Of a stretch of DNA of 64,000 nucleotides, positions 15,111 to 50,065 are shown one piece after another. The notes beneath the pieces are model-generated. The model saw only the letters and a program-made list of their open reading frames with translations. It was not told the DNA's origin and made no database searches. The DNA comes from Candidatus Harrisonbacteria bacterium (GTDB lineage Bacteria > Patescibacteriota > Minisyncoccia > UBA6257 > 02-FULL-45-10c), in NCBI GenBank assembly GCA_016192685.1, contig JACPTS010000001.1:311647-375646 (forward strand), in the 5' to 3' direction. A program made the position numbers and the translations under genes. Numbering within the stretch: the first letter of the stretch is position 1; every line of letters begins with the position of its first letter.

Positions 15111-15262
15111 GATTCTCTACCTATATTTCTATCGGCACCGGCGTCGCTCCGCTCCAGCGGCGGAGCGCGCCTACGCCTCGCCGCGATTTTTGTTTCGCTT
15201 TGCGAAACAAACCAAGCAAATCGCGGCTCCGTAGTTGCCGTACGAAACATAGGCAGAGAATC
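15111..15262 (+). repeat. structured repeat element, copy A
   Basis: flanking inverted repeat gattctctacctat / ataggcagagaatc; core boxes TATCGGCACCGGCGTC - hairpin - GCGCCTACGCCTCGC - hairpin - GCTCCGTAGTTGCCGTACGA. Confidence 0.85.
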
Positions 15263-15332
15263 TATAATCAAGAAATATATCTGCTTATTTTGAAAAATCT
15301 AACCTCGCTTAGTTGGGATTTTTTAAATGGAC

Positions 15333-15361
15333 TTGACAATCGAAATTTTGTTATATATAAT
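15333..15361 (+). promoter_or_regulatory. sigma70-type promoter of nusA
   Basis: TTGACA - 17 nt - TATAAT; followed by a leader hairpin tccgc-ctgcaa-gcgga + U-run at 15379-15401. Confidence 0.6.
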
Positions 15362-15437
15362 GTAAATAATGATTGATGTCCGCCTGCAAGCGGATATTTT
15401 ATTAAGACAACAGACGACTAACGACAGATAACAACAT

Positions 15438-16802
15438 ATGTTTAATTTAAAAGAACTAAAAAAAGCCGTAGAACAAATTGCCCAGGAAAAAGGCGTAGAG
15501 GCGAAAAAAGTTTTTGAGGCGCTGGAAGCGTCTTTGGCGGCTGCTTATAAAAAAGAATATTGCCAGAGGGGGGAAGTGGTTAAAGCGAAATTTGACCAAA
15601 AAACCGGCGGGCTTAAATTTTGGAAAATAAAAACTGTGGTTGATGACACTACGGTGAGAATTGTTGAAGAGGAGCCGGTTCCGGAAGGCGGAGCGCCGGA
15701 AAACGAATCTCGGCGCGCGCGAGAAGAATTTATGCCGGAAGGAGAGGATGTTTTACCTCGTTACAATCCCGATCGGCATATTTTTCTGGAAGAAGCTAAA
15801 AAGGAAAAACCGGACGTAATTTTAGGGGAAGAATTAATTTATCCCTTAGAAACTCACGATGATTTCGGCCGGATTGCCGCCCAAACCGCCAAACAGGTGA
15901 TTCTCCAGAAATTGCGGGAAGCAGAGCGAAATTCAATTTTAGAAGAATTTCACAATAAAGAAGGCGAGATTATCAGCGGCGTAATCCAGCGATATGACCG
16001 CGGCAATGTTTATGTGGATTTAGGCCGGGCAACCGGAATTATGTTTTATAACGAATCTATTCCGGGAGAACATTATACGGTCAGCGATCGGATGCGTTTT
16101 TATATTTTAGCGGTTCAGGAAGAATCAAGAATTCCCGGAATTATTTTATCCCGATCTCATCCGAAATTTGTCAGCCGACTTTTTGAGCTGGAAGTCCCGG
16201 AAATTGCCGACGGCGTAGTAGAAATTAAAGCGATCGCGCGGGAACCGGGCAGCCGCAGTAAAATCGCGGTAGTTTCCAAAACTGAAGGCATTGATCCGGT
16301 TGGTTCCTGCGTCGGCCAGCGCGGCACTAGAGTAATGGCGGTTTCTAATGAGTTGGGACAGGAAAAAATTGATATTATTGAATGGTCGGAAGATCCGGCT
16401 AAATTTATTACCAATGCTTTATCTCCGGCCAAGGTGACTGGCGTTGAAATTTTACCGCGCCGGGAAGCTAAAACTTTTGTTCCAGACGACCAATTAAGCT
16501 TGGCCATCGGCAAAGGAGGGCAAAATGTGCGTCTGGCGGCCAAACTGACCAGCTGGAAAATTGATGTTCGCTCCCAGTCAAAACCGGATGAAGTTTTAGA
16601 GGGCGGCGTGGCAGCGGCAATTCCGACTGAAGAAGTAAAAAAGGGGCTGGAAGAAAATAAAGAAGAGAAATCAGCAGAAGAAAAAAGCCCCGAAGCGGTT
16701 GCTTCGGAAATAGAATCTCAAGAAGCTAAACCCCCCGCCTCCGCCGAGGCTTCGGCGGGCAAGAAAAAACGAGGCCGAAAAAAGAAAGCTGAAACTCAAT
16801 AA
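15438..16802 (+). CDS. nusA: transcription termination/antitermination factor NusA with Lys/Glu-rich C-terminal extension
   Basis: 454 aa; N-terminal domain, S1 and two KH domains; acidic/basic tail ending [13 protein letters not shown]. Confidence 0.85.
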
Positions 16803-16812
16803 TAGAGACTTT

Positions 16813-18786
16813 ATGTATCTACTAGTTTTTCTCCCAATTATTTTAGCCGTCGCTTACAGCGCTTATATAATGTATTGGCTTTCCTGCCAGCCGAAAGGAA
16901 ACGCCAAAATGCTGGAAATTTCTCAGGCAATCCAGGAAGGCTCGGCGGCTTTTTTAAATCGCCAGTATAAAAGTGTCGCTGTGGTCGCCGCGATTTTATT
17001 GCTTATTATTTATTACCTGCTGGGCAGTATGTCCGCCCTTGGATTTTTAGTTGGCGCCTCGGCATCGGCGTTGGCTGGCTATATCGGAATGAATGTGGCG
17101 GTCCGTTCCAATTCCCGGACTGCCGAAGCCGCCAATCAAGGTTTAAATTCCGCGCTGACTCTTGCCTTTAAAGCCGGCTCGGTAACCGGATTTTTAGTGG
17201 TAGCCTTGGGACTGCTGGCGATTGCCGGATTTTATTTTTTAACCAATGACCCCAAAGCTTTAATTAGTCTCGGTTTTGGCGCCAGTTTAATTTCTGTTTT
17301 TGCCCGCCTGGGCGGAGGAATTTTTACCAAAGCCGCGGATGTCGGCACGGATTTAGTCGGTAAAGTGGAAGCCGGCATTCCCGAAGACGACGTCCGGAAT
17401 CCGGGCGTGGTAGCGGATAATGTCGGAGATAATGTCGGCGATTGCGCCGGCATGGCGGCCGACCTTTTTGAAACTTACGCGGTAACTTTGATTGCCGCGA
17501 TGCTTCTTGGCTCGCTGATTGATAAAAGCGCTGCCGGTCCTTTAGTAATTTTCCCGCTGGTGCTCGGCGGCCTGGCGATTTTAGCATCGCTGGTTGGATC
17601 GGCTCTGGTAAAAACCGGCTCAAGCAATTCCATTATGGGAGCGCTTTATAAAGGATTAATCGGGGCTTTGGCTGCTTCGGCGATTTTATTTTATCCGGCT
17701 GCCAGATTTTATCTTGGCGAAGGTTATTGGAATTTTTATCTGACTACCCTGATAGGCCTCGCGGTAACCGCGCTAATGGTGGTGGTAACTGATTATTACA
17801 CGGCAAAAAATTACCGGCCAGTCCAATCCATTGCCGAAGCGTCCAACTCCGGTCATGGCACTAATATTATTTTGGGACTCTCTGTTGGCATGGAAGCCAC
17901 TTTTGTTCCGGTTTTAATTATTGTTTCAGCGATTCTTTTAAGTTTTTCTTTGGCTGGGATTTATGGCGTGGCGCTCGCGGCGGTTTCTATGCTTTCGGTA
18001 GCCGGAATTGTAGTGGCAATTGATTCTTTTGGCCCGGTGACTGACAATGCCGGCGGCATTGCCGAGATGAGCGGAGCTCCCCAGAACGTACGGCAAATCA
18101 CTGACGCGCTGGATGCGGTTGGCAATACCACCAAAGCGGTTACTAAGGGCTACGCCATTGCTTCAGCCGGGCTGGCGGCATTAGTTTTGTTTGCCGGATA
18201 TGTTGAAGAGTTTGCCGCGCAGGCAAAAAATTTAGTTTTTGAATTAGAAAATCCTTATGTAGTAGCGGGATTAATTTTAGGCGCGGCAGTTCCCTACCTT
18301 TTTGCTTCTATTGCGATGAAATCCGTAGGCCGTGCCGCTGGCGCAGTGGTAGAAGAAATCCGCCGGCAGTTCCGGGAAATTCCCGGAATTATGGAATACA
18401 AAGCTAAGCCGGATTATGGCCGGGCTGTAGATATTGTGACTAAAGCCGCGCTCAAAGAAATGGTAGTGCCGGCAGTACTTCCGATTTTGTCAGTGGTTTT
18501 AGTCGGATATTTTTTGGGAGCGCAAGCTTTAGGCGGATTTTTAATGGGCACGATTGTCGCCGGACTTTTTTTGGGAATTTCCATGACTACCGGCGGCGCG
18601 GCGTGGGATAACGCCAAAAAATATATTGAATCCGGCAACTTCGGCGGCAAGGGCTCGGAAGCCCATAAAGCCGCGGTTACCGGCGACACAGTCGGCGACC
18701 CCTACAAAGACACGGCCGGCCCGGCAATCAATCCGCTGATTAAAGTTATAAATATAGTAGCTTTATTATTAGTGCCATTTTTATAA
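16813..18786 (+). CDS. hppA: membrane-bound H+/Na+-translocating pyrophosphatase
   Basis: 657 aa polytopic; [19 protein letters not shown] and [21 protein letters not shown] signature motifs. Confidence 0.9.
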
Positions 18787-18790
18787 TTTA

Positions 18791-18934
18791 AAGCTCTATA
18801 TATCTTCCTACCGGCACCGGAGTCCGCTTGCTCCAGCGGCAAGCGGCTCCTACGCCTCGCTCCGAAATTTTTGCTTCGCGAAAACCAAGCATTTCGGAGC
18901 TCCGTAGTTGCCGTACGAAAGATATATAGAGCTT
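18791..18934 (+). repeat. structured repeat element, copy B
   Basis: perfect 16-bp flanking inverted repeat aagctctatatatctt / aagatatatagagctt; same three core boxes as copy A; nearly identical to copy G. Confidence 0.9.
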
Positions 18935-18945
18935 TTGAAAAATTT

Positions 18946-19158
18946 ATGTCAGTTAAACTTGGAATTTATGAGCATTATAAAGGAAAAAAATATGAGGTAA
19001 TCGGAATAGCAAAGCATAGCGAAACTTTGGAGGAATTAGTAGTTTATCGGGCGCTTTATGGCGAAAATCAGTTATGGGTTAGGCCTATAAAAATGTTTAT
19101 AGAGGAAGTGGAAGTTGCCGGCAAGAAAATTCTGCGATTTAAATATATTGGGAAATAA
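18946..19158 (+). CDS. DUF1653-like small protein
   Basis: LGIYEHYKGKKYEVIGIAKHSETLEELVVYRALYG; ORF-track start 18871 lies inside repeat B, so the ATG at 18946 is preferred. Confidence 0.55.
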   Translation: MSVKLGIYEHYKGKKYEVIGIAKHSETLEELVVYRALYGENQLWVRPIKMFIEEVEVAGKKILRFKYIGK

Positions 19159-20412
19159 ATGAAATACACATCTAAAAAATTACCAGACTCAATCATTGAG
19201 GCAGAGGTGGTTTTGGAGCATAAAGAATTTTTGGAATATTATCAGCCGATTTATGATCAGGCGCTGGCTTCGGTTAATCTTAAAGGTTTTCGGCCCGGAG
19301 CGGCGCCGAAAGATTTAGCGGAAAAAGCCGTGGACAAAGAAGCGGTTTTTAATGAAGCAGTGAATAAAGCTGTACGCGACTCCTTGCAAGAAATTACCGA
19401 AGAAAATAACTGGCAATTGATTGACCAGCCGAAGGTGGAAATCGTTGAAACCAATCCGCAAGAAAATGTCGGTCTTAAATTTAAAGCCACCATTACAATT
19501 TTTCCGGAAGTAAAATTGGGGAATTATCAAAAAATCGCTAAAAAGATTTTGGGAAGCGCTAAAAAAGATTTTTCCGCAAGCGAAGAAGAAATAAACCAAT
19601 CTCTTCAATGGATTTTAAATTCCAGGGCAAAAGTTACCCGGGTAGCGCGTGAGGCAAAAATGGGAGACGTGGTAGATTTGGATTTTTCCGGATTTGTTGA
19701 CGGGAAACCGCTTGATGGCGCAAGCGGCAAGGCGGATAATTTTGTTTTGGGCGAAGGGAAATTTATTAAAGGATTTGAAGAAAATTTGATTGGACATAAA
19801 GAGGGTGAACATTTGGAATTTTCAGTGAATTTTCCGGCGGATTATTGGAAAAAAGAACTCCAAAATCAAAAGGTGGATTTTCAAGCTGATTTAAAAGGCG
19901 TTTTTGAACGGGAACTGCCGGAATTAACCGATGATTTCGTAAAAAGTCTCGGCAAATTTGAAAATGCCGCCACGCTTAAAACTAGTATCCGAGAAGGAAT
20001 TGCCAAGGAAAAAGAAATGAAAGAAAATGAACGCCTGCGCCTGAAAATTTTTGAGGAAATCATTAAAAATTCTGAAATTGCGCCGCCGCGAATTATGGTG
20101 GAGCGCACTCTGGATAATTTAATCGCGGAATACAAGAATTTAGTAAAAAATCCCGATGAAAAAATCGCTGTTAGAAAAAATTTAGAGGAGAAAGCCAAAA
20201 ACAGCGTGGCTACCAATTTAATCTTGTATCAAATTGCCAAAGAGCAAAAAATTGAGCCGTCTCAAGAAGAGATAGAATCAGAGGCCAATAAAGCCCTTTC
20301 CCATTCTGAATTCAGGAAAAATCCGAAAATTGACGTCCAGCGGCTTTACGATTATATTTATGGTGAGCTTCGAAATAAGAAAATTTTTGAATATTTGGAA
20401 TCATTAAAATAA
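19159..20412 (+). CDS. tig: trigger factor
   Basis: 417 aa; N-terminal ribosome-binding domain, FKBP-type PPIase core (GFRPG..), C-terminal arm. Confidence 0.85.
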
Positions 20413-20413
20413 T

Positions 20414-21016
20414 ATGGAACACAGCGATTATTTAATTCCAACGGTCATAGAAAAAACCCAAGCTGGCGAGCGGGCTTATGACATTTATTCCCGGCTTTTA
20501 AAAGAGCGGATAATTTTTTTGGGCGGACCGATCAATGATGGAGTGGCCAATACCGTGATCGCGCAAATGCTTTTTTTGGAGCATGAAGACCCCAAAAAAG
20601 ACATTAAGCTTTATATAAATTCTCCGGGCGGTTCAGTGACTGCCGGTTTAGCAATTTACGATACGATGCAATATATCAAGCCGGATGTTTCCACGATTTG
20701 CGTTGGCATTGCCGCTTCTATGGGCGCTGTTCTTCTGGCAGCCGGGAAAAAAGGCAAAAGAATTGCTCTGCCAAATTCCGAAGTGCTTTTGCACCAAGTG
20801 ATGGGCGGCGCGGAAGGGCAAGCGGTGGAAATTGAAATTACAGCGAAACACATTGTCCGGATGAAAGAGCAGTTAAGTCAAATTCTTGCCAAACATACCG
20901 GACAGACGCTTTCAAAAATTGAAAAAGATACTGATAGAGATTTTTGGCTGACGGCGGCTGAAGCAAAAGAATACGGGGCGGTAGATGAAGTTTTGAAAGG
21001 AAGGAATGCAAAATAA
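20414..21016 (+). CDS. clpP: ATP-dependent Clp protease proteolytic subunit
   Basis: 200 aa; catalytic GIAASMGA (Ser), His and Asp context; tig-clpP synteny. Confidence 0.9.
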
Positions 21017-21088
21017 CGCAAGCCCGCAAGGCTTGCGATTTTTTTATTTTCGGGTTATTTTCTAATAAAAGGCTTTTGAGGAGAACGG

Positions 21089-23382: not shown

Positions 23383-23383
23383 T

Positions 23384-30005: not shown

Positions 30006-30076
30006 GCGGGTATCGTATAGTGGTAATACGTCACCTTGCCAAGGTGAGGTCGCGGGTCCGATTCCCGCTACCCGCT
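30006..30076 (+). tRNA. tRNA-Gly(GCC)
   Basis: cloverleaf, anticodon loop uuGCCaa. Confidence 0.8.
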
Positions 30077-35517: not shown

Positions 35518-35589
35518 GCCCTCGTCGTTCAACGGATAGGACGCAAGATTGCGGATCTTGTAATAGAGGTTCAACTCCTCTCGAGGGCA
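35518..35589 (+). tRNA. tRNA-Arg(GCG), unusual anticodon
   Basis: perfect acceptor/T/anticodon stems; loop uuGCGga; A20 present; the ORF-track ORF 35485..35760 is spurious. Confidence 0.7.
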
Positions 35590-35606
35590 CTAAAGTTTGA
35601 CAAGGC

Positions 35607-35629
35607 GGTGCGCGCTGAGGGGATAGAAC
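35607..35629. repeat. duplicated 3' end of tRNA-Val (pseudo-tRNA fragment)
   Basis: gtgcgcgctgaggggatagaacc vs tRNA-Val 3' end (minus strand) tgcgcgctgagggaattgaaccc at 35771-35795. Confidence 0.6.
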
Positions 35630-35732
35630 CGCTCGGAAACCCTCGGTTTTCCGACGGTCGCCTACGGCGACCTGCCTTCCGATACGGGAAACTCCCGTTT
35701 CCCGACCCCTTCCCGTTCAATTCCCTCAAGCT

Positions 35733-35770
35733 AAAAATAAAAATTACCGATGAACGGTAATTTTTATTTT
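35733..35770. terminator. AT-rich 16-bp hairpin downstream of tRNA-Val
   Basis: aaaataaaaattaccg-atgaa-cggtaatttttatttt. Confidence 0.5.
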
Positions 35771-35771
35771 G

Positions 35772-35843
35772 TGCGCGCTGAGGGAATTGAACCCCCGACC
35801 TTTGCTGTGTAAAAGCACTGCTCTGCCGCTGAGCTAAGCGCGC
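35772..35843 (-). tRNA. tRNA-Val(TAC)
   Basis: cloverleaf; anticodon loop uuUACac. Confidence 0.75.
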
Positions 35844-36417: not shown

Positions 36418-36490
36418 TGGGTCAGGATGGAATCGGACCATCGATCCCCAAGGTATAAGCTTGGTGCTTTAACCGCTAAGCTACTGACCC
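36418..36490 (-). tRNA. tRNA-Ile(TAT), unusual anticodon
   Basis: anticodon loop cuUAUac with perfect stems; T-loop UCCGAUU (C55) is atypical. Confidence 0.65.
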
Positions 36491-37889: not shown

Positions 37890-37914
37890 ACTTATATTTT
37901 ATTCATTAACGCTA

Positions 37915-37946
37915 GTTAACAACATTACGATCGTAATATTGTTAAC
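37915..37946. repeat. 32-bp palindrome copy 2 (GTTAACAACATTACGATCGTAATATTGTTAAC)
   Basis: located 26-57 nt upstream of the start of gene 37317..37889 (operator-like position). Confidence 0.8.
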
Positions 37947-37983
37947 TAATTAAAAATTAACGGAAAAACTAATTTCTTGATTT

Positions 37984-39861
37984 TTAAATACCTAGCGGTT
38001 TCAATTTAAATCCGCCAACAATTTTATTAAAGTCTTCCTGCTCCAAGGTCTCTTTTTCCATCAAAGCCGAGGCAATGGCTTTCAATACCTGCCTTCGGGA
38101 ACTGATGATTTTTTTGGTTAAATCATAGGCATGGTCAATAAAAACTTTTACCTCCTCGTCAATTTTCGCCGCCACGCTTTCCGAATAATTCCGTTCGTGA
38201 GAAATTTCTTTTCCTAAAAATACCAATTCCTGGGTTTCACCGAAAGTCTGCGGCCCAAGTTTTTCGCTCATCCCAAATTGGGTGACTAAAGCCCTTGCCA
38301 CCCGGGAAGCTTCTTTTAAATCGCTTGAAGCGCCGGTGCTCATATCGCCAAAAACCATTTTTTCCGCCACATAGCCGCCAAGCGCCACCGCAATATCCGT
38401 TAAAAATTGGGTGCGGCTCCGCAAGTGCAATTCCTCCGTGGGCAATTTCAAAGTATATCCGCCAGCCCGGCCGCGGCTGACAATAGAAACTTTATGCACC
38501 GGGTCCGCGTCTTTTAAACTCGCGGCCACCAGCGCGTGCCCGGCTTCATGGTAAGCGGTAATTTCTTTTTCTTTCTGGGTAATCACCCGGCCTTTCCGCT
38601 CCGGACCAAGCAATACTTTTTCCACTGAAGAATAAAGGTCGTCTTGGGAAACTAATTTTCGGTTGTGCCTTGCGGCCAAAATCGCCGATTCATTCATCAA
38701 ATTTGCCAAATCCGCGCCGGAAAATCCGGGAGTACGGACAGCCACTTTTCTCAAATCCACGTCTTTTCCAAGCGGTTTTTCTTTGGAATGGATTTTCAAG
38801 ATTTCTTCCCGGTCTTTAATATCCGGCAAGTCCAAAATTACCCGGCGGTCAAAACGGCCCGGACGAAGTAAAGCCCGGTCTAAAATATCCGGCCGGTTAG
38901 TTGCGGCAAGCACAATTACATTAGTATCCCGCTCAAAACCGTCCATTTCCACCAAAATTTGGTTTAAAGTTTGCTCCCGTTCATCGTGGCCGCCGCCTAG
39001 CCCGGCGCCCCGCTCCCGGCCAACCGCGTCAATTTCATCAACAAATAATATGGAAGGCGCGGCTTTTCTGGCAGTCTGGAAAGCATCGCGGGTTCGGGCC
39101 GCGCCGACTCCGACGAACATTTCCACGAATTCAGACGCGGAAATATGGAAAAAGGGGACATTGGCTTCGCCAGCCACTGCCCGCGCGAGCAGGGTTTTGC
39201 CGGTTCCCGGCGGGCCCATTAAAAGCACGCCGCGCGGAATCCGGGCGCCCATTTCCAGAAATTTTTTCGGATTTTTCAAAAAATCCACCACTTCTTCCAA
39301 TTCTTGTTTAGCTTCTTTTAGCCCGGCTACGTCTTTAAAAGTGAGCCGGTCTTTAAAAGCGCCGAACATTTTTAAATTGGATTTTCCGAAACTGAAAGCT
39401 TGGCCAGCGCCGGCTTTGGCTTGGCTGAAAATAAACCAAAACATGGCGCCGATAATAATCAGCGGCAAAAGCGTCGGAATTAAAATTTCCGCCCAAAAAC
39501 GCCAGCCGCCCGGCTCTTTAACTTCTAAATTAACCGATTGCAGAGCCGCGGAATTAACGCCGTAATTATTTAAAGTTTCCGTCAGGCCGGCTTCGGATTC
39601 TTTTTTAGCCACTGCCCTCTCTTCATTTTTTAAATCAATAAAAAGGTCATTGCCGCGAATGGTAATTTTTTCCGCTTCTCCCTTATTGATTCTGGTCACT
39701 AAATCGCTGATGGATAATTCCAGCGGCGCCTTGCCGGTCTGGAATAAAAGCGAAAAGGCAAGCGAGATCGCCAATAAAGTAATGGTGGCCCAGAACAGGT
39801 TTTTAGAAAAATTAATTTCTTTCTTAATTCTCATAGCTTTAAGTATATAAAAAAATAACAA
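37984..39861 (-). CDS. ftsH: ATP-dependent zinc metalloprotease FtsH
   Basis: 625 aa; AAA Walker [12 protein letters not shown], zinc site HEAGHA. Confidence 0.9.
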
Positions 39862-39890
39862 AAAGAAAAAGCCCCGTCAACTGGCCGCTT

Positions 39891-40037
39891 CGCTATACCT
39901 ATTTACCTACCGGCACCGGCGTCGGTCGCCTCCTGCGGGCGACCGCGCCTACGCCTCGCCGCCAAAAGTCCCGCATAGCGGGACACCAAGCTTTCGGCGG
40001 CTCCGTAGTTGCCGTACGATAAATAGGTATAGCTCGC
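39891..40037 (+). repeat. structured repeat element, copy C
   Basis: flanks cgctatacctatttac / gtaaataggtatagc; boxes TACCGGCACCGGCGTC, GCGCCTACGCCTCGCC, GCTCCGTAGTTGCCGTACGA; hairpin 2 = aaagtcccgcatagcgggacaccaag (shared with copy D). Confidence 0.9.
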
Positions 40038-40044: not shown

Positions 40045-40090
40045 TAATTTTAAAAATAAAAAAGCCTCGTCAATGCTGCTGACGAGGCTT
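40045..40090 (-). terminator. intrinsic terminator of the 523-aa gene
   Basis: minus strand aagcctcgtca-gcagcat-tgacgaggctt + tttttatttttaaaa. Confidence 0.75.
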
Positions 40091-40103: not shown

Positions 40104-41675
40104 TTAACGCTTGGATTTTAAAAATTCTTCCATCTCATCAATTAGGGGAATATCGTATTTTTGGAAAAGCGCAATCAATGCCATCAGATGCCAGTAGTAC
40201 GGCGGGCCAAGATAAGCCGGATCGCCGCCCTTAAGCCACATCCGAAAAAGTTCGCCCACGGTCGGATAAACCGTCCGGACAATTTCGTGAGATTCTTTTA
40301 CCGGAAGATTTTTCTCTTTATGGGCAATTTTAGTCCAAAAGTGATCAACGTGATTTTCTCCTTTTTGTTTCCGGAAGGGCCGTTCAAATATTTTTAAAAC
40401 CTCGTGGCCAGACTCATTTTGATATTCCCGGATTGAGTGGCCGATGATTTTATACAAAAATCCATCTTCTAAGGTTTGTTTAGCCAGTTCTGGCGGAAGA
40501 ATTCTCTTAATGTCTTGGTCAAGAACCTGGCCATATTTGTCTGATTCAGTGGCGCCGCCCGGCCAGCCAAGGCCAGCTGGTTTGCCGCCTTTTTTTGCGG
40601 CGTGGCCGAAGTAATCCCGTTCGCCGTCATCGCCGCGATTTTCCACCATAATAACTTGTAATGCCGCTAATTCTTCTTTGGATTTGCTTTTTAGAATTTT
40701 CACCAATTCCTCAACAGATTTGGCGAAAATCCCCAGAAAAGCCATGCCAAAAGAAGTATTTTCTATGTCTCTTATTTTCTTCTCGCGCTCCAGGTCAATG
40801 ATTTCCGGATGCTCATCCGCGTATTTATAACGAACCCTTTCTGCTTCTTGCTCAGCCAGCCAATTTTTTAAGCCTCGCATCCGCTCTTTGGCATCTTCAT
40901 AAGTTTGCGCGTATAAAAGGTCCAGTTTAATGATTTTCCAATCTTTTTTGTAGCGATGCGGCACGGTTTTGGTCAATAATCTGATATTCTGCAATTCTTC
41001 AATATGCGCCTCGCAAGCAATCAACGGTTCATCTAAATCTTTCAGGCCAAGCGCAAAAGGAAGCTTAAAAAAATTCATTTCCTCGCTCAGAGTCACTGTC
41101 ACAAAAGAACCATTCCTCACCTTTTTGCCTTTCCATTCGGCGATTTCTCCGTAATGAATATCACCTTTTCTGGTATTAATCCGGAAACGGAACTTGGGAA
41201 TAAATTTTAGCTCGGCAGTGTCGCCGGCAAGAATTTTATCCCGAATTGAAAGAAGAATTTTTTGTGTTTCCAGCATTTCTTTTTGCCTGGCTTCGTATTG
41301 CTGAAACTCTTTGCGGAGCTGGGCAATTTTTGCCCGGGCGTCCAGAAAATCCTGATAACTCGGATGATTGTTTGGCGCGCCTCTCAATAGCTGATTGCAA
41401 ACCAAGTTTATTTCTTCATATTTGTTAAATAGCTCTTTTAAAAGTGCGCTGTCGGGCTCTAACGCCATTGTTTGTTCTAAGATTTCATTGGCAAGATGCA
41501 CTGCGCAGATTGTTTTATCGCCGTCTGGAGCTAAAGAATCAACTCGCGGCTTTTGAGGATCGTCAGGTTCAAGCACCGCTGTCGGCTCAGCTGATTTTTG
41601 TTTCTCGTCCGGAAGTACGTGAGCCAGGAATTCAGCTTCGGTAACTTTGCAGATTTTTTCTTCCATTTTTTCCAC
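40104..41675 (-). CDS. hypothetical protein of unknown function (cargo between repeat copies C and D)
   Basis: 523 aa; predicted coiled-coil near the N-terminus; Gly-rich GHAAKKGGKPAGLGWPGG segment; no recognisable domain; own promoter, RBS and terminator. Confidence 0.5.
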   Translation of the reverse strand: MEKMEEKICKVTEAEFLAHVLPDEKQKSAEPTAVLEPDDPQKPRVDSLAPDGDKTICAVHLANEILEQTMALEPDSALLKELFNKYEEINLVCNQLLRGAPNNHPSYQDFLDARAKIAQLRKEFQQYEARQKEMLETQKILLSIRDKILAGDTAELKFIPKFRFRINTRKGDIHYGEIAEWKGKKVRNGSFVTVTLSEEMNFFKLPFALGLKDLDEPLIACEAHIEELQNIRLLTKTVPHRYKKDWKIIKLDLLYAQTYEDAKERMRGLKNWLAEQEAERVRYKYADEHPEIIDLEREKKIRDIENTSFGMAFLGIFAKSVEELVKILKSKSKEELAALQVIMVENRGDDGERDYFGHAAKKGGKPAGLGWPGGATESDKYGQVLDQDIKRILPPELAKQTLEDGFLYKIIGHSIREYQNESGHEVLKIFERPFRKQKGENHVDHFWTKIAHKEKNLPVKESHEIVRTVYPTVGELFRMWLKGGDPAYLGPPYYWHLMALIALFQKYDIPLIDEMEEFLKSKR

Positions 41676-42311: not shown

Positions 42312-42520
42312 ATTTCCCTCCTTTTTTGATCGGAATGTTCTGTTTTATATATTATTTCAATATCAAAAATAAATCAAGTTTTTGCTTTGTAAATTTTTTT
42401 AAATTATAGAAGGCCGCGTTAGCGACCTACATTATTATCTACAACTATCCCTCAAAGAAGTTGAAAATATATTTGATTTGGCTATGTGCCGTGCGGCAAC
42501 TATTTTAATTTGAATTTCTA

Positions 42521-42708
42521 GCCGCTCTGCCGAGTTGTCGTAGAGAAACTACGGAGCCCCAAAAAGATTGGTGTCCCGCCATGCGGGACTTTTTGGGGCG
42601 AGGCGTAGCGGGCTCGCGCCGCTGGAGCGCGAGAACCGCGGTTCTCATAGACAATTCGGCGGAGCGGCCGTCAAAAAATGCCGGTGCTGATAGACAAATA
42701 GACAGAGC
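42521..42708 (-). repeat. structured repeat element, copy D (inverted relative to C, with internal insertion)
   Basis: reverse complement contains TATCAGCACCGGC, CCGCTACGCCTCGCC, hairpin ccaaaaagtcccgcatggcgggacacc, GGCTCCGTAGTTTCTCTACGA, plus an extra segment ccgccgaattgtctatgag shared with copy E. Confidence 0.85.
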
Positions 42709-42716
42709 TTAATAAA

Positions 42717-44509: not shown

Positions 44510-44868
44510 CTGGAAAAATTCAAAACTTTTTCTTAAAACTCCAGCAAGAAGATGAAGCCACCCGAAAGCGCTGGCTGATAATTTTAACTTCCGGAACCAT
44601 GGCCGTAGTGGTCAGCCTTTGGCTGGTTTACCTTAATTTTACGATTAAAGCGCTGGCTCCGGAACCGCCAAAAGAAGAAGCGGGATTTTTTAAAACTTCC
44701 GCCAACGGCCTTCAAATCATCTCGCAAGAAACCGCCTTAAAAATCAGCCAATTAAGCGCCTATCTAAAATCGCTGGCCAATCAAACTAATTCCATTACTA
44801 TTCAGCCGGCAAATATTAATTTAATCCTGGAAGATTTAGAAACGGTCAAACCAAAAAAATTGCCTTAA
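44506..44868 (+). CDS. hypothetical membrane-anchored protein
   Basis: 120 aa, single TM. Confidence 0.4.
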
Positions 44869-44884
44869 CTTTACGGAAAACTCA

Positions 44885-47353
44885 ATGACTGAAAAAGATA
44901 AAAAACTTAATACCGGAGTAGAAAAACGGGAAATTACCGAGGAGCTTCAGGAGTCTTATTTGGATTACGCCATGTCGGTAATTGTCGCCCGCGCCCTGCC
45001 GGATGTCCGGGACGGACTAAAACCGGTCCAGCGCCGGATTCTTTGGGCCATGTGGGACAGCGGCCTGACGCATTCGGCTAAATTTAAAAAATCCGCCAAT
45101 ATCGTCGGTGAAGTGCTTGGCAAATACCATCCGCACGGCGATTCTTCAGTATATGAAGCCATGGTCCGCATGGCGCAGGAATTTTCTCTCCGATATCCGC
45201 TGGTGGAAGGCCAGGGCAATTTCGGCAGTATTGACGGGGATTCGGCCGCCGCCTACCGCTACACCGAAGCCCGGCTTTCTAAATTAGCGGAAGAAATGCT
45301 GTTGGATATTGAAAAAGAAACCGTGGACTGGCTGCCGAATTATGACGCCAGCCGCCAAGAGCCGAAAGTCCTGCCGTCCAAAGTTCCGAATCTTTTATTA
45401 AACGGCACCGTGGGCATTGCCGTTGGCATGGCCACCAATATCCCGCCGCATAATTTAGGAGAAATCGTTGATGCCGCGCATCATCTGATTGATAATCCCA
45501 AAGCCACCATCAGCGATCTTATGAAATTCGTCCAGGGGCCGGATTTCCCGACTGGCGGAATTATTTATGATAAAAAGGCGATTGATGAAGCTTATGCTTC
45601 CGGCCATGGCGCGGTTACGGTCCGGGCGGTTGCCGAAGTAAAAGAAGAAAAAAAGGGGAAAAATGAAATTGAAATTACGGAAATTCCATATCAAGTGAAT
45701 AAAGCGGAGCTGATTATAAAAATCGCGGAACTGGTAACCGATAAAAAAATCCAGGGCATTCGGGACGTCCGGGATGAATCGGATAAAGACGGCCTGCGGA
45801 TTATAATTGAATTAAAAAATGACGCGGCGCCGCAAAAAATCCTGAATCAGCTTTATAATTACACCGATCTTCAGAAAAATTTCAATCTCAATATGATTGC
45901 CCTTGCTAAAAACGGGCTCCAGCCGGAGGTAATGTCCATTAAAGACATTTTAGCCGCTTATTTGGAACATCGGAAAGAAATTGTCCGGCGCCGGGCCGAG
46001 TTTGATTTGAAAAAAGCCGAGGAACGCGCCCATATTTTAATGGGGCTGCATAAAGCGCTGGGCGATATTGACCGGGTAATTTCTACAATTAAAAAATCAA
46101 AAGACAAAGAAGACGCCCATAAAAATTTAGTTGCGAAATTTAAATTCAGCGATTTACAGGCAACTGCCATTTTAGAAATGCGGCTTCAGACGCTGGCGGC
46201 CTTGGAACGGGAAAAAATTGAAGAAGAACTGAAAGAAAAGAAAAAATTGATTGAGGAATTACAGGCGCTTCTTAAAAGTCCGGCAAAAATTCTGAAAGTC
46301 ATAAAAGACGAGCTGAAAGAAATGAAAGAAAAATACGGCGATCAGCGCAAAACCAGGCTGGTTTCCGGCGGACTTAAAGATTTTAAAGAGGAAGATTTAG
46401 TGCCAAAAGAAGAAACGATTATCACTATGTCTCAAGGAGGTTATATTAAGCGCGTTCAGCCGTCATCTTTCAAATCCCAAAAACGCGGCGGCAAAGGCCT
46501 GATCGGTTCGGAGGTGGCGGAAGAAGATTTTTTGAGCCATTTTATGACCGCCAATACCCACGACAACCTTTTATTCTTTACCGAGCGCGGCCGGGTGTTC
46601 CAGACTAAAGTTTATGAAATTCCGGAGGCCAGCCGGATTGCCAAAGGAAAAGCCATCCATAATTTCCTGGAAATTCCTTTGGAAGAAAAATTAAGCGCGG
46701 TTATTGCTTATGCCGGCGAACATAAAACCAAAGAAGAGAAAAAATCCGCTCAAGGATATCTGGTGATGGTAACTAAAAACGGGCTGATTAAAAAAACCGC
46801 TTTAGCGGATTTTGCCAATGTCCGTCGCAATGGAATTATTGCGATTAAACTTAAAAAAGGTGACTTGCTCCAGTGGGTGCGGCTTTCTTCGGGGAACGAC
46901 CAAGTTACGCTCGCGACTGCCCAAGGCCAGGCGATTCGTTTTAAAGAATCCCAGCTCCGGCCAATGGGCCGGACTGCTTCCGGCGTCCGGGGAATCCGGA
47001 TTAGAAAAGGCGATTCCGTAGTGGCGCTTAATATCGTTACCAAAGAAAATGAAAAAGGCCAATTGCTTACCGTAATGGCCAATGGTTTTGGAAAACGGAC
47101 CCCGCTTTCCGAATACAAAGTGCAGGGCCGCGGCGGTTCAGGAATAAAAACTTCTAAAGTGACTTCTAAAACCGGTTTGGTAGTGGCTTCACCTCTTATC
47201 AACGTGGAAAAAGAAATCTTGGCGCTTTCCGCTAAAGGCCAGATTATCCGCACTCCGATTGAAAGCATCCGATTAAGCGGCCGCGCCACCCAAGGCGTCC
47301 GGATTATGAATGTCAAAGATAAGGACAAGGTGGTTGGTGTCATTTGTCTTTAA
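44885..47353 (+). CDS. gyrA: DNA gyrase subunit A
   Basis: 822 aa; [25 protein letters not shown]; active-site Tyr context; C-terminal beta-pinwheel repeats. Confidence 0.9.
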
Positions 47354-47395
47354 ATTTATTTCCTTGCCAGCATCAGCATTATTTTGAAATGCTGT

Positions 47396-47576
47396 TCCGC
47401 CGAATTGTCTACGAATTTTACTCGCCCTGCCTGTATTTCTGACGGCACAGCCCCGCTTTGCGGGGCTACGCCTCAACGCCAAAAATTTAGGCTACCATTA
47501 TGCGATCGCATAATGGTAGCCTAAATGCCGAGCTTTTGGCGTTTCCGTAGTTGCCGCACAAAACACAGGCAGAGCT
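47396..47576 (+). repeat. structured repeat element, copy E (variant)
   Basis: flanks ctgcctgt / acaggcag; box1 variant GACGGCACAG; GCTACGCCTCA; 66-nt perfect palindromic hairpin centred on gcgatcgc; box3 variant TTCCGTAGTTGCCGCACA; upstream segment ttccgccgaattgtctacgaa shared with D. Confidence 0.85.
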
Positions 47577-47651
47577 CGTTAAATTATTTATGGAATTTCT
47601 CCACGATAGCTTAACAAATCGGCAATAAATAAAAAAACGAAATAGAACTTC

Positions 47652-47678
47652 TTAGTTGCCGCACGACAGATAGGTAGC
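47652..47678 (+). repeat. truncated remnant of repeat-element 3' end
   Basis: cttagttgccgcacgacagataggtagc matches box 3 plus a flank-like tail. Confidence 0.5.
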
Positions 47679-47710
47679 TTACTTTAATGTCTATATTTTA
47701 GCGCGCGCTT

Positions 47711-47739
47711 GACAGAGCATTGGAAATATGATATACTAT
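47711..47739 (+). promoter_or_regulatory. consensus sigma70 promoter of the GC-rich cassette
   Basis: TTGACA - 17 nt - TATACT; SD aaaggaggt 8 nt before ATG 47781. Confidence 0.65.
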
Positions 47740-47780
47740 TTTTAAGCTGAAAAGTTGCACATTCATAAAGGAGGTATAAC

Positions 47781-48260
47781 ATGGGCATTTTGGTTCAAGG
47801 AATTCTCTGTTATGGATTCCGCATCAAGGACGAAGATGGTAACGAGGAAAACGTAACCATCAACTGGCTCCCCAAAGATCCAGACGGTGCTGAGGGGGAC
47901 TTCGAGGACTTTCTCGCTAAGCTGTTCGGCCTTAAAGAACCTGACAGTCAATACGACGAAAAGAGGTATGCCACAGACCCAGAGTATAAGAGGATGTGGA
48001 GCAGTTACTGGGAAAAGAAAAACAAGCTCGAAGAAGAGATTGGGGTAACCCTTGTTCATCACTGCTCTGGCGAACAGCGAATGTGTATCTTGGCTGTCAC
48101 GGAATCAGTGCGGGAAGCGAACTGGGGTGAGCCTGTCAATCTTGGTCAATCCATCACCGACAAGCAGACGGAGTGGCGAGAGAAACTTCGTGCCTTCTGC
48201 GAACGAGTGAATATCCAATTTGAAGAGCCTCAGCTTATCCTTTGCAGCTACTACGGATGA
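47781..48260 (+). CDS. hypothetical protein, compositionally foreign (GC-rich) cargo between repeat copies E and F
   Basis: 159 aa; codon usage (ctc, gac, aag, ggc) contrasts with the AT-rich host; no recognisable domain. Confidence 0.6.
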   Translation: MGILVQGILCYGFRIKDEDGNEENVTINWLPKDPDGAEGDFEDFLAKLFGLKEPDSQYDEKRYATDPEYKRMWSSYWEKKNKLEEEIGVTLVHHCSGEQRMCILAVTESVREANWGEPVNLGQSITDKQTEWREKLRAFCERVNIQFEEPQLILCSYYG

Positions 48261-48288
48261 GACTTTGGCAGTCGAATTGGAATCTCCA

Positions 48289-48336
48289 GGAGGCCAACCA
48301 GCGATAACATCAAGGTTGGCCTCTTTCTTTTTTAAA
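48289..48336 (+). terminator. intrinsic terminator of the GC-rich cassette
   Basis: ggaggccaacc-agcgataacatcaa-ggttggcctc + tttcttttttaaaattt. Confidence 0.8.
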
Positions 48337-48410
48337 ATTTCCCGCCAAAGCGAAAGCCAAGTCTGACTTGGCGAAAGCTGAGGCGGTTTTTATATTGAAT
48401 TAGATTAAGA

Positions 48411-48580
48411 GCTCCGCCTCTCTGTTGTGCGGCAACTACGGAGCCGCTAAAAGCTTGGCCTTCTACCTAACTATCTGACGATCGTCAGATAGTTAGGTAG
48501 AAGTTTTGGCAGCGAGGCGTAGGCGGCGCCGACCACAGGAGTCGGCGAACGCCGGTGCCGGTAAACAGAGAGGCGGAGCG
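48411..48580 (-). repeat. structured repeat element, copy F (inverted relative to E)
   Basis: perfect 16-bp flanks gctccgcctctctgtt / aacagagaggcggagc; reverse complement has TACCGGCACCGGCG, GCCTACGCCTCGC, 70-nt palindromic hairpin centred on gacgatcgtc, GCTCCGTAGTTGCCGCAC. Confidence 0.9.
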
Positions 48581-48600
48581 ATTTGTTGTATAATTAAAAT

Positions 48601-49911
48601 ATGAACTTTTCTCGTTCCCAGCTTGTTATTCTTGGTTCAGTGCTTTTTATTGTTCTTCTTTTGGTTGGCATTTTTACCGGAGTTTTGCCGGGTACCCGCC
48701 AACTCCGGGAAAAACCGCCGGAATTGACTCTGGCTGTCTGGGGAATTGATGAACAAGAATTATTTTTGGAAAATATCAATGCTTACGAAACTCTTCGGCC
48801 GAATGTCCGGGTGGATTACGAAGAATTGGACCCGGCCACTTATGAAGAGAGGATTATTAACGCGCTGGCTGCTGGCGCCGGGCCGGATATTATAATGTTC
48901 CATAATTCCTGGCTGCCGAAACACTATAATAAAATCGTGCCGGTTGGCGACACCCAGCTTAACCTTAAAACCCTGAAAGAAATCTTTCCGGCTGTTGTGG
49001 AACAAGATTTCGCGCCAGACGGGAAAATCCGGGCGCTTCCATTATATATAGATACCCTGGCGTTGTTTTATAATCAGGATACTTTTGATAAAAACGGCAT
49101 TGCTGTTCCGCCAAAAGACTGGCTGGATTTTCAGAATCTTTTGCCGAAATTGCGCGAACGCGACGGTTCCGGCCGAATCACTAAAGCCGGAGCGGCCATC
49201 GGCGGCTCCGAAAAAACCATTGCCAAGTCCGCGGATTTGCTGATGCTTCTGATGCTTCAAGCCGGCGCCAAAATGACCGATGATGGATTTAGCCAAGCTA
49301 CTTTTGCCAGCAATGTCGGCGGCCAACTGCCCGGCATTGACGCTTTAAATTTTTACGCCAAATTCAGCGATCCCCGGGATAATTATTACACCTGGAATGA
49401 TGGCTTGGAATATTCCCTGGACAGTTTTTCGCGCGGCAACGCGACAATGATTTTCCATTACGCGAGAGAACGGAAAAATATTAAAAGTAAAAATCCTTTC
49501 CTCAATTTTAAAACCGCGGAAATGCCTCAGCCGACCGGCGCGGAAAAAGCCGTTAATTACCCGGATTACTGGGGATTGGCGGTTACCAATAACAGCAAAA
49601 ATCCGGACTGGGCCTGGGATTTGATTCTTTATTTGACCGCCAATGATGCCGCCGCGGAAACTTATTTAAAAACTGCTGACCGGCCGCCGGCGCTCCGTTC
49701 TTTAATCCAAAAATACGCTAACCATCCGGAACTCGGCGCTTTTACCAAGCAAGCGCTTTCCGCCCGTTCCTGGCCGCAAATTGATAAAGATGCCATCCGG
49801 CTGATTTTTTCCGATATGATTCAGGCGGTAATCAGCGGCCAGTTGGATTCCCAGGCCGCCGCGGCGCAGGCAGAACGGCAAGTAACCGAATTAATGAAAT
49901 CTCGCCGGTAA
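48601..49911 (+). CDS. ABC-transporter extracellular solute-binding protein (family 1, sugar-type)
   Basis: 436 aa; N-terminal TM anchor; SBP_bac_1-like sequence. Confidence 0.6.
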   Translation: MNFSRSQLVILGSVLFIVLLLVGIFTGVLPGTRQLREKPPELTLAVWGIDEQELFLENINAYETLRPNVRVDYEELDPATYEERIINALAAGAGPDIIMFHNSWLPKHYNKIVPVGDTQLNLKTLKEIFPAVVEQDFAPDGKIRALPLYIDTLALFYNQDTFDKNGIAVPPKDWLDFQNLLPKLRERDGSGRITKAGAAIGGSEKTIAKSADLLMLLMLQAGAKMTDDGFSQATFASNVGGQLPGIDALNFYAKFSDPRDNYYTWNDGLEYSLDSFSRGNATMIFHYARERKNIKSKNPFLNFKTAEMPQPTGAEKAVNYPDYWGLAVTNNSKNPDWAWDLILYLTANDAAAETYLKTADRPPALRSLIQKYANHPELGAFTKQALSARSWPQIDKDAIRLIFSDMIQAVISGQLDSQAAAAQAERQVTELMKSRR

Positions 49912-49925
49912 TTCGCGTTTCTTTC

Positions 49926-50065
49926 GCTTTGCTTATTTGCCTACCGGCACCGGCGTCGTTCCGCTCCTGCGGCGGAACGCGCCTACGCCTCGCTCCGAAA
50001 TTTTCGCTTCGCGAAAGCCAAGCATTTCGGAGCTCCGTAGTTGCCGTACGACAAACAAGCAAAGC
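49926..50065 (+). repeat. structured repeat element, copy G
   Basis: flanks gctttgcttatttg / caaacaagcaaagc; core nearly identical to copy B. Confidence 0.9.

Follow-up and report, generated by a model that had tools for sequence, protein, structure and literature searches.

A stretch of 64,000 nucleotides from a Candidatus Harrisonbacteria genome, the whole of which is called the window here, carries intergenic repeats in which three short boxes are conserved while the segments around them differ between copies, and the question that it raises is whether such a repeat is a structured RNA, a mobile element or both. A first, sequence-only reading had recognized seven full copies, and a covariance model run with its filters off over all 64 kb agrees, finding these 7 copies only, at 101-162 bits each. 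Box 1 has 5 matches in the window against 0.22 expected, box 2 has 6 against 1.31, and box 3 has 6 against 0.00. The unit is ~145 nt long (with inserts up to ~205 nt), occurs at a density of 7 copies per 35 kb and makes up about 1.7% of the 64-kb stretch.

On one strand, the element folds in the order P1, internal loop, P2, and three-way junction with P3, P4, P5, and P6. P1, the closing stem, is about 17 bp long (12-20 bp in the window copies), free in sequence and always complementary; a symmetric internal loop (3x3-4, GUR/NYAR) separates it from the 5-bp stem P2, and P3, in the three-way junction, consists of 4 invariant bp (UACG/CGUA). P4 has a GCUUGG bulge, P5 is a variable hairpin, and the P6 hairpin loop reads CGCWGGA. 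The helices vary yet stay complementary, and the invariant bases fall either at unpaired positions of the junctions and loops or within the short P2 and P3 stems, as would be expected of the structured family first proposed; the accompanying claim that the boxes are single-stranded holds in part, with boxes 1 and 3 partly forming P2 and boxes 2 and 3 partly forming P3. Two independent sets of copies have 97.0% and 97.2% of their pair cells paired; shuffling lowers this to 65-66% and sliding the partners to 35-44%. Compensatory change occurs at 48/53 and 49/53 pairs, and the covariation check as a whole comes out above the shuffled and slid controls. Folding z-scores are about -8.5. The copy-specific inverted flanks are also real, and they are the element's own closing helix, P1, where, at most positions, no more than 30-60% of copies share the commonest pair.

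The strand with the better fold and the wobble signature is the opposite of the one first drawn. The strand complementary to the orientation first read folds better in 7/7 copies, by 5-18 kcal/mol, and across 109 distinct copies G.U outnumbers A.C by 214:38 in favor of this structured strand, a ratio that is the same whatever the direction of the adjacent gene (48:8 for sense copies, 86:13 for antisense copies). Covariation together with a wobble bias on one strand indicates selection on a folded single strand, for RNA and ssDNA alike. Relative to the gene just upstream of the element, the wobble-favored strand is the antisense one. The orientation signals, wobble on the one hand and placement at gene 3' ends on the other, point to opposite strands, and the best explanation must assume two levels of selection.

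Within the window, copy A has its core (P1, P2, and three-way junction) at 15112-15260 on the minus strand (148.6 bits), 47 nt past the stop of an ORF at 12914-15064 and 177 nt ahead of nusA (Pfam), with a minimum free energy of -90.6 kcal/mol on the structured (minus) strand versus -79.3 on the other. It stands at the apex of a 22-bp hairpin, an outer shell at 15072-15292 whose arms (15072-15093, AAAATAAGCCAATATATTTCTT, and 15271-15292, AAGAAATATATCTGCTTATTTT) have 2 mismatches and are of the AAAAYAGCC.. subfamily, for which P1 of L048:3228 may be compared. The core of copy B (18791-18933, minus; 147 bits) has its P1 starting 4 nt past the stop codon of a H+-pyrophosphatase gene (16813-18786; Pfam), and that of copy C (39890-40034, minus; 162 bits) lies between an ORF of 523 aa (40104-41675, minus) and ftsH. 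Copy D (core 42523-42667, plus; 157.8 bits) is enclosed by fragments of an older copy, X (42476-42710, in the pieces 42710-42679 and 42500-42476); this shell begins 6 nt past the stop (42717) of an rpsA-like S1 gene (Pfam S1) and recurs with the same architecture in L083 (4744-5015). Copy E (core 47422-47576, minus; 101.3 bits), with a shortened P6, also lies among shell fragments (47396-47680, compared with L083 4790-5015), namely a D-like 5' arm at 47396-47416, a D-like 3' end at about 47596-47624, and an X-like 3' end at 47652-47680. The remnant first noted at 47652-47678 is this X-like shell fragment of a copy into which E nested, and the extents first given for D and E were too long, the excess being fragments of the enclosing copies. 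Copy F (core 48410-48581, plus; 142.6 bits) ends 19 nt ahead of the start codon of a solute-binding-protein gene, and copy G (core 49924-50066, minus; 149.9 bits) lies 12 nt past the stop of that gene and 25 nt ahead of a pilin start. In a palindrome scan, the perfect palindromes of E and F, put at 66-70 nt before, measure 42 nt (47485-47526) and 44 nt (48460-48503) and form the P5 tips of hairpins of ~66-70 nt.

Mapping of copies to genes bears out a location in intergenic gaps and gene 3' ends: 109/109 distinct copies, occurring in both orientations, are intergenic or overlap a gene at the stop codon alone. When the 5' end of the element is taken in the orientation of the sequence-only reading, its median distance from the stop codon is 8 nt (62 copies; 41 within 16 nt), and that of the other end is 95 nt. 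A U-rich tract (at least 5 U in 8 nt) follows P1 at 41/104 copies in the gene sense versus 14/104 in the opposite sense, and a U-rich stretch in the gene sense accompanies from 39% (at least 5 of 8) to 72% (at least 4 of 8) of copies. The neighboring genes, which include nusA, the H+-PPase gene, ftsH, the S1 protein gene, and gyrA among others, are syntenic with relatives.

Run on other genomes and metagenomes, the covariance model shows that the family recurs, with all of its 109 distinct copies coming from Patescibacteria genomes or groundwater metagenomes. This is the case both for the 47 matches in the genome-scan loci and the window and for the metagenome loci, of which 68/68 have a match (75 correct-strand matches), whereas about 50 chance loci and 20 viral loci gave none. 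The taxa in which the invariant unpaired junction bases are found include Harrisonbacteria, Paceibacter, and Colwellbacteria; a 100% protein match likewise assigns the window itself to Candidatus Harrisonbacteria. The claim of novelty stands against Rfam 15, where the whole window at the gathering threshold returned 10 tRNAs only and both strands of copy C at E<=10 gave Plasmid_R1162 as best hit, at 24 bits versus a threshold of 55; no phage or plasmid sequence matched the element, and no published description of it was found in the literature. The element is a previously undescribed family that has been found only in Paceibacteria (Candidate Phyla Radiation, CPR), which are tiny bacteria of groundwater.

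Genomes that are 80-90% identical differ in whether an orthologous site carries a copy. For example, copy G is present in L117, whereas L083 and L147 are empty there, with a gap of 14 nt; a filled/empty alignment places copy C at the orthologous site in L147, with L083 empty; and the ftsH stop site is empty in the window and filled in L083 and L048. A whole segment of 1247 nt (47354-48600), made up of E with its shells, an ORF with its own promoter, and F, is missing from L083 and L147; in these relatives, gyrA either overlaps the solute-binding-protein gene or is separated from it by 30 nt. Such empty sites in syntenic relatives, which the first reading had proposed to look for, indicate that the element moves or, at the very least, that sites gain and lose it. 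The cargo gene between E and F, ORF159 (47781-48260, plus; promoter TTGACA-17-TATACT, 47709-47737), matched nothing in Pfam and has homologues elsewhere that are not flanked by the element. As to a mobilizing enzyme, a Pfam scan of 30 of the 64 window ORFs showed no transposase, recombinase, or reverse transcriptase, no autonomous IS with the same ends was seen in these ORFs or in about 1.2 Mb of loci, and no multi-copy protein family was found beside the copies; a tblastn search of ~1.2 Mb of partial-genome loci with a Y1/RAYT (IS200) consensus, which is a weak test, gave nothing better than E=0.07.

The junctions bear on the alternative raised in the first reading, that the repeat is a MITE inserting into palindromic targets and that its flanks are the halves of a split pre-existing terminator hairpin. 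Copies do sit at terminator positions, some P1 helices have A and T runs on either side, and the insertion at C abuts a terminator, half of which is duplicated: a direct duplication of ~21 nt (39859-39879 and 40052-40072, single copy in L083), comprising the terminator half-stem plus an A/T run, surrounds the copy, and in the empty allele the matches to the two flanks share 20 nt. However, P1 at C does not include the intact terminator, and neither half of the P1 of G or C is present in the corresponding empty sites in L083 and L147, which contradicts the split at both testable sites; in addition, identical P1 sequence (GCTCTGCCTG..) recurs at unrelated loci, following subfamilies, and extension of P1 beyond the model is not commoner than chance. 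Nor are the flanks target-site duplications. No duplication of fixed length, the mark of a classical MITE, was found across the filled/empty comparisons: the junction duplication is 0 nt at G, 0 nt at the ftsH stop site, and about 21 nt at C, and at the L110/L042 site 33 nt are replaced, so that these inconsistent outcomes do not support a defined transposition chemistry. The AGCGAG...CGAGCG direct repeats are not in the empty sites and follow subfamilies. A split terminator is highly improbable. Complementarity could also have been maintained by mutation instead of selection, through quasipalindrome template switching during replication and gene conversion between copies, which would carry changes from one arm into the other, leaving decaying selfish palindromes with no single-stranded function. 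The zero-loop palindromes of 42-44 nt in E and F and a palindromic insert of 60 nt in L083:951 are products to be expected of such a process, and whole-hairpin replacement between orthologues shows that conversion is frequent: window G and L117, L090 and L145, and window D and L083 are each (near-)identical pairs except for one whole hairpin, the orthologue of D (L083 4796-4960) being identical in a pairwise alignment save for the replaced P4/P5. Template switching, on the other hand, gives perfect Watson-Crick arms and cannot account for wobble outnumbering A.C by 5.6:1 on one strand, and it explains neither the invariant unpaired junction bases shared across the three taxa nor the compensated changes in P1, whose arms lie about 110 nt apart (window C and L147 differ by 6 changes in P1, all pair-preserving); we regard this origin as very unlikely.

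Two further explanations give the folded strand a function of its own. The copies may be a family of free-standing genes for a structured noncoding RNA, for example a ribozyme of a new self-cleaving type or an RNA that binds a protein. Transcription from the wobble-bearing strand would then start at a promoter within the 20 nt upstream, which are rich in A+T and poor in G, and each copy would be kept by selection on the host or at the RNA level. Free complementary stems with invariant junctions, loops, and P2/P3 are the classic pattern of structured RNA, a wobble bias independent of host transcription direction is RNA-typical, the upstream 20 nt are 75-86% A+T and 1-6% G, and a TAnAAT-like hexamer stops 0-1 nt short of the AGCGAG boundary in several copies. 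Orthologous copies are also far better conserved than their flanks, which in the three pairs above have 47-75% identity in crude global alignments, with about 72-93% (BLAST) for the neighboring coding DNA. This strong conservation also fits a host-encoded RNA function. Against such genes, matches to a -10/-35 signal number 24 versus 15 in the control, giving no positional signal across all copies; head-to-head pairs only 14-27 nt apart (L011, L053, L112, and L119) have no space for promoters; there is no terminator in that sense, the element running antisense into the neighbor gene; no Rfam ribozyme or RNA family matched even at E<=10; and the density of copies, their nesting, and their truncated fragments resemble the behavior of mobile elements. 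An RNA gene family is a tentative possibility. Alternatively, the element might be an ssDNA recombination site like an integron attC or a REP/IS200-type hairpin, its folded bottom strand being acted on by a tyrosine or HUH recombinase. This would explain both the position of the fold opposite to the strand of the gene before it and the start of the site at that gene's stop codon, an attC-like geometry in which the element is flush with or overlaps that stop; structure conserved while sequence varies, and the ORF-carrying segment between copies that relatives lack, would also fit. It is made doubtful by a structure in which a 17-bp outer stem closes a three-way junction, where attC has a bulged single hairpin, by the lack at the hairpin base of the attC R''/R' consensus (RYYYAAC/GTTRRRY), by syntenic housekeeping neighbors (nusA, ftsH, gyrA, rpsA-like) in place of cassettes, by the occurrence of both orientations, with E and F inverted rather than direct, and by the fact that no integrase or HUH gene was seen in the 30 of 64 ORFs compared with Pfam or in the weak Y1/RAYT search of ~1.2 Mb.

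The conserved three-armed fold, the place behind stop codons, and presence or absence between relatives make the element look like a new REP/ERIC-like element, and the explanation that we favor, with about even confidence, is a new non-autonomous, mobile, structured intergenic repeat of the REP/REPIN/ERIC kind that doubles as a gene 3'-end module. The strand-specific wobble would be the mark of a single-stranded intermediate (ssDNA or RNA), which may be recognized through its invariant junction and loop bases by a trans-acting enzyme encoded elsewhere, as REPINs are by a RAYT transposase. Short-patch gene conversion, breaking within the conserved boxes, would swap hairpin modules between paralogous copies, and this exchange, combined with selection for pairing, could produce the covariation. 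Insertions would survive mainly directly past a stop codon, the one spot likely to be neutral or useful in compact genomes, where the sense-strand hairpin and its U-rich tail could serve the upstream gene as terminator or 3'-end structure. Counting against this explanation are the failure to find a mobilizing enzyme in the ORFs and loci searched, the inconsistent junctions, and the opposed orientation signals. A bolder version, speculative and rather improbable, is a new self-propagating structured nucleic acid whose invariant three-way-junction core would be catalytic (a ribozyme) or recognized by an undescribed RNA/ssDNA integration system of CPR bacteria, and which would install itself precisely at stop codons, swap hairpins between copies, and be co-opted as terminator or insulator of housekeeping genes.

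Several known systems resemble the element in part. The REP, BIME, and REPIN sequences of Proteobacteria are reportedly mobilized by RAYT, a domesticated IS200-type HUH Y1 transposase; REPs are palindromes of 20-40 nt, and REPINs are simple doublets. Like them, the element is extragenic, high-copy, present in both orientations, gathered at gene 3' ends, non-autonomous, and vertically retained, with single-strand hairpins; REPs are also credited with side roles as terminator or mRNA stabilizer, which the element may share. It differs in its unit, a ~145-nt three-way junction whose loops and junctions carry invariant bases in place of a short doublet, in its host phylum, in having no sequence similarity, and in the lack of a RAYT in a weak, partial-genome search. 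The ERIC/IRU repeats of Enterobacteria and the bcr1-type repeats of the Bacillus cereus group are comparable: they are imperfect palindromes of about 120-160 nt in transcribed intergenic regions with no known transposase, patchy at orthologous sites, and with compensatory substitutions that point to selection on a folded single strand. They are, however, single long hairpins with no branched core, bcr1 makes a fixed TTTAT duplication, and neither matched the element by sequence or in Rfam; we know of no report of whole-hairpin module exchange or nested shells for ERIC or bcr1. Integron attC sites (e.g. the Vibrio cholerae repeats) likewise begin with or within the stop codon of the ORF before them, vary in sequence while conserving structure, and have the complement of the coding strand folded and selected, whereas the element is branched and occurs in both orientations, with no integrase seen in the ORFs and loci searched. 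An intrinsic (Rho-independent) terminator is also a very stable hairpin a few nt past a stop, often followed by a U-rich stretch, but the element is ten times larger, its conserved branched core would be superfluous in a terminator, and its wobble signature lies on the antisense strand. Three assignments were rejected: a classical MITE, as the terminal inverted repeats are not conserved in sequence among copies and P1 is complementary within a copy only; attC R''/R' boxes, as P1, the base of the hairpin, has no conserved sequence and the only invariant AAC is internal, past P2, within CGGCAAC or GAGAAAC, neither of which has the form RYYYAAC; and an integron cassette array next to intI, given the mixed orientations and syntenic housekeeping neighbors.

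CPR/Patescibacteria genomes are about 1 Mb in size, streamlined, and believed to carry little mobile DNA. Contigs carrying ORF159 stop at the flanking element copies, and the repeats thus break CPR metagenome assemblies. With near-perfect covariation, invariant junctions, and strand-specific wobble, the element is a clean and well-replicated candidate for a new RNA/ssDNA structural class, and to our knowledge stop-codon placement, whole-hairpin exchange, and nested shells have not been described together for REP, ERIC, or MITE families. From an evolutionary point of view, a terminator or insulator role, if true, would show the domestication of selfish repeats in minimal genomes, and a core that proved catalytic or recognized by a new enzyme would add a new mechanism of mobility.

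A covariance model built from the seven copies of the element in the window (A to G), and searched against the window with all filters off, recovered exactly these seven at 101-162 bits; the other matches were the opposite strand of six of the seven copies (28-38 bits) and short hairpins scoring no more than 21.5 bits. Sequence inspection likewise confirmed seven related units where the sequence-only reading had located them, and the recurrence it claimed for its three conserved boxes was borne out, with 5 matches against 0.22 expected for box 1, 6 against 1.31 for box 2, and 6 against 0.00 for box 3. Copies D and E had been correctly placed but drawn too long, their actual extents being 42523-42667 and 47422-47576 and the remainder consisting of fragments of other copies, and the perfect palindromes of 66-70 nt attributed to E and F measured 42 and 44 nt. 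The boxes, taken to be unpaired stretches, proved instead to be partly base-paired, and the complement (rev) folds better than the orientation originally chosen (gene-sense).

Beyond the window, a scan of one genome per species with a degenerate pattern gave true matches in five Patescibacteria assemblies only: one of Colwellbacteria, one of Paceibacter, two of Candidatus Harrisonbacteria, and a MAG left unclassified as "Patescibacteria group". Some 50 further loci had matched the pattern by chance and were rejected by the covariance model. All 68 loci from a metagenome scan were confirmed by the model, and these came from groundwater, including the Hainich wells and JGI records Ga0209541 and Ga0209542. 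Sources of the element across the analysis included Hainich wells H41/H51, NC_groundwater samples, and JGI sample 3300025317 (Ga0209541). On the other hand, none of 20 loci from the IMG/VR viral scan was confirmed, and blastn found no match to the element in phage and plasmid collections. Rfam returned no family for the element in the window at the gathering threshold, for copy C at a permissive E-value, or for the composite repeat at locus L068, and the element and its boxes were absent from the literature searched by taxon, keyword, and box sequence; the family is thus undescribed in Rfam and in that literature.

RNAalifold and single-sequence folding concur on the structure of rev. The outermost helix, P1, is ~17 bp long and encloses a symmetric internal loop (5' GUR / 3' NYAR) and the 5-bp P2 (CGGCA/UGCCG or GAGAA/UUCUC), beyond which lies a three-way junction with strands AAC-UACG-GA, GAGG-CGUA-G, and GG(U). 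One arm of the junction runs from P4 through a GCUUGG bulge into the variable hairpin P5; the second arm is P6, which has the loop CGCWGGA and a bulged (G/A)AC. Minimum free energies range from -80 to -108 kcal/mol, folding z-scores are ~-8.5 against dinucleotide shuffles, and the invariant bases fall either within the short stems P2 and P3 or in loops and junctions that are unpaired. In alignments of 47 sequences and of 70 distinct sequences, standard pairs filled 97.0 and 97.2% of pair cells, respectively, as compared with 65 and 66% in shuffled controls and 35-44% in both sets when partners were slid; compensatory changes occurred in 48/53 and 49/53 pairs, and the covariation score was 0.81 and 0.77 against 0.21 and 0.20 after shuffling, figures that are somewhat inflated because the alignments were fitted to the model but that exceed the controls by a very large margin. 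The unpaired conserved stretches on rev each hold GGAG or GAGG (ACGGAG, GAGGCG, and the loop CUGGAG, e.g. 39890-40034), tetramers that read CUCC or CCUC on the gene-sense strand, which makes the loop-exposed motifs of all copies, judged by sequence, Shine-Dalgarno-like or anti-Shine-Dalgarno-like.

The paired positions of rev contain 214 G.U against 38 A.C pairs across 109 distinct copies; because the copies are related, a binomial p-value overstates this difference, but the bias is nonetheless spread across many positions. The ratio is 48:8 where rev is sense and 86:13 where it is antisense to the adjacent upstream gene, so that the bias, being alike in both orientations, does not stem from read-through transcription or transcription-coupled mutation, and the structured strand, unaffected by host gene direction, is a property of the element itself. 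No positional promoter signal emerged upstream of rev, where 20 nt are simply rich in A+T and poor in G, and where some copies carry TAnAAT-like hexamers. GC skew, considered as a way to tie copy orientation to replication, tracks gene orientation and was uninformative.

Copies in the window neighbor housekeeping genes, namely nusA, the H+-pyrophosphatase gene, the trigger factor gene, and ftsH, as well as genes for an S1-domain protein, gyrA, a solute-binding protein, and pilins. Stop codons facing the 3' end of rev, i.e. the 5' end in gene-sense orientation, lie at a median of 8 nt (62 cases, 41 of them within 16 nt), and several copies overlap the stop codon, whereas those facing the other end lie at a median of 95 nt (49 cases). 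Convergent gene pairs often carry two head-to-head copies, one behind each stop codon. At least five U residues within the 8 nt past P1 were found in 41/104 copies in gene-sense but in 14/104 in the other sense. Given this U-rich tract and the stop-codon proximity, the gene-sense element resembles an unusually large terminator or 3'-UTR hairpin of the preceding gene. The terminator-like features and the wobble signature are, however, on opposite strands, two signals that do not fully agree. The window also holds ten tRNA genes, single or in small groups (Rfam; 5340-5536, 7454-7540, 30006-30076, 35518-35843, 36418-36490, 52853-52934, 59626-59700, and 63864-63936), of which none adjoins a copy.

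Syntenic relatives, identified through the solute-binding protein and by BLAST searches of the collected loci with the window, show clean presence or absence of the element. Copy G is shared with L117 but absent from L083, where the stop-to-start gap is only 14 nt, and from L147; copy C is present in L147, whereas L083 has only the native terminator; and the 1247-nt segment comprising E, ORF159 (47781-48260, +), and F is missing from L083 (30 nt between gyrA and the next gene) and L147 (overlapping genes). Conversely, the ftsH stop site is empty in the window and L147 but filled in L083 and L048. No duplication marks the junctions of G and the ftsH stop site, whereas at site C a terminator half and its T run, ~21 nt together, are duplicated in both the window and L147; junctions were thus inconsistent in four filled/empty comparisons, and a fixed target-site duplication was discarded. 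The conserved AGCGAG/CGAGCG direct repeats are part of the element. Empty sites hold no half of P1, which refutes the suggestion that the flanking inverted repeat is a split pre-existing hairpin, and the idea that P1 is built from target sequence was dropped because helix extension past the model is about as frequent as chance. Between L110 and L042, with flanks 91-99% identical (BLAST), 33 nt are replaced by 194 nt, and as the entire intergenic region differs, this suggests an allelic replacement.

Except for whole hairpins, conservation between orthologous copies far exceeds that of the flanking sequence. Outside the 8-bp P6 stem, which is wholly replaced in both arms, window G departs from L117 at a single position; L090 and L145 show the same pattern, and D differs from its L083 counterpart by a replaced P4/P5. 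The six P1 changes between window C and L147 all preserve pairing, two being double changes and two passing through G.U on rev. P6 "alleles" recur across genomes joined to differing P1, P4, and P5. From these alignments we infer that two processes have probably operated: paralogues exchange sequence by short-patch gene conversion that breaks within the conserved boxes, and purifying selection maintains pairing at each locus. Copies are also nested: A forms the apex of a 22-bp outer hairpin, D is enclosed by the P1-P2 shell of an older copy (identically in L083), and E by two such shells. A 96-nt deletion derivative (L125/L083, 5098-5193; 42 bits), 5 nt past a stop codon, retains P1 and P2 as well as the 5' half of P4/P5, which abuts the 3' arm of P6. 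Perfect or near-perfect zero-loop palindromes occur at 4568-4599, 11223-11256, 37912-37951, 47485-47526, and 48460-48503 in the window and at 1052-1112 in L083; CGATCG is the center of three palindromes, two at the P5 tips of copies E and F and one standing free downstream of ftsH, and the P6 loop of one L083 copy bears a palindromic insert of 60 nt. The zero-loop palindromes may have arisen by template switching or may constitute a small family of palindromic insertions in their own right. A second, larger hairpin repeat, with several occurrences in one genome and without an Rfam match, has an outer stem of ~24 bp (TAATCGGGTTATAGACACTTTTCA / TGAAAAGTGCCTATAACCC..) with the 145-nt element at its tip and contains the conserved stretches CCATCGCCTCCA and ACCTGAATGATCCCACCGCCAGCCCGAATG (L068 ~5370-5640, L012 ~3380-3640, L041 ~800-1060, L059 ~720-990, and the flanks of L094 and L153).

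A Pfam scan of 30 of the 64 window ORFs detected no transposase, recombinase, or reverse transcriptase, 1.2 Mb of loci yielded no Y1/RAYT homologue (a weak test using consensus queries), and beside the copies there were only orthologues and no multi-copy protein family. ORF159 encodes 159 aa and is 100% identical to HYY86_01875 of a 608-kb contig, a match from which the window is taken to belong to a Candidatus Harrisonbacteria MAG. It is part of the segment that relatives lack, and its promoter is close to consensus (TTGACA-17-TATACT with TG extension; 47709-48260 including the promoter). It was rejected as the transposase of an E-ORF-F composite because Pfam assigns it no domain and the element is absent around its homologues, whose contexts are unrelated; it is retained as cargo. 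The contig of one homologue (L176) is phage-like and also carries Thy1 and a sigma-70-like gene. Two short-read contigs bearing ORF159 (L178 and L179; 960 and 944 nt) end ~250 nt either side of the gene, at positions corresponding to E and F, so that the repeats break CPR metagenome assemblies. Elsewhere in the window, a LAGLIDADG homing-endonuclease ORF (Pfam E=3.7e-11) adjoins a UPF0102/YraN-like nuclease gene (10514-10972, -, and 11044-11424, +).

The best fit to these data is a structured repeat of REP/REPIN/ERIC type, mobile but non-autonomous, to which we give about even credence. The main rival, a free-standing and possibly catalytic RNA gene family, is favored by the conservation pattern and the constraint in situ; against it, copies lack promoters and terminators and occur nested and as fragments, and we judge it unlikely. 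The stop-codon and bottom-strand geometry is shared with integron attC sites, yet the defining attC sequence and arrays are missing from the element, and an attC-like single-stranded DNA recombination site is improbable. Purely mutational maintenance by template switching, although it accounts for the perfect palindromic tips, leaves the wobble bias and invariant loops unexplained and is highly improbable.

If the element is a mobile repeat, a factor encoded elsewhere would recognize the single-stranded form of rev via its invariant core, and those insertions that survive would be concentrated directly behind stop codons, where the gene-sense hairpin with its U-rich tail could act as a terminator or 3'-end structure. 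It is unlikely that the element represents a category of its own, such as a ribozyme or an undescribed integration system. It belongs to a known kind, the structured interspersed repeats, but is unusual in combining a branched core whose junctions are invariant with nested shells, the exchange of entire hairpins from copy to copy, and a position flush with the preceding stop codon, on the strand opposite the wobble signature.
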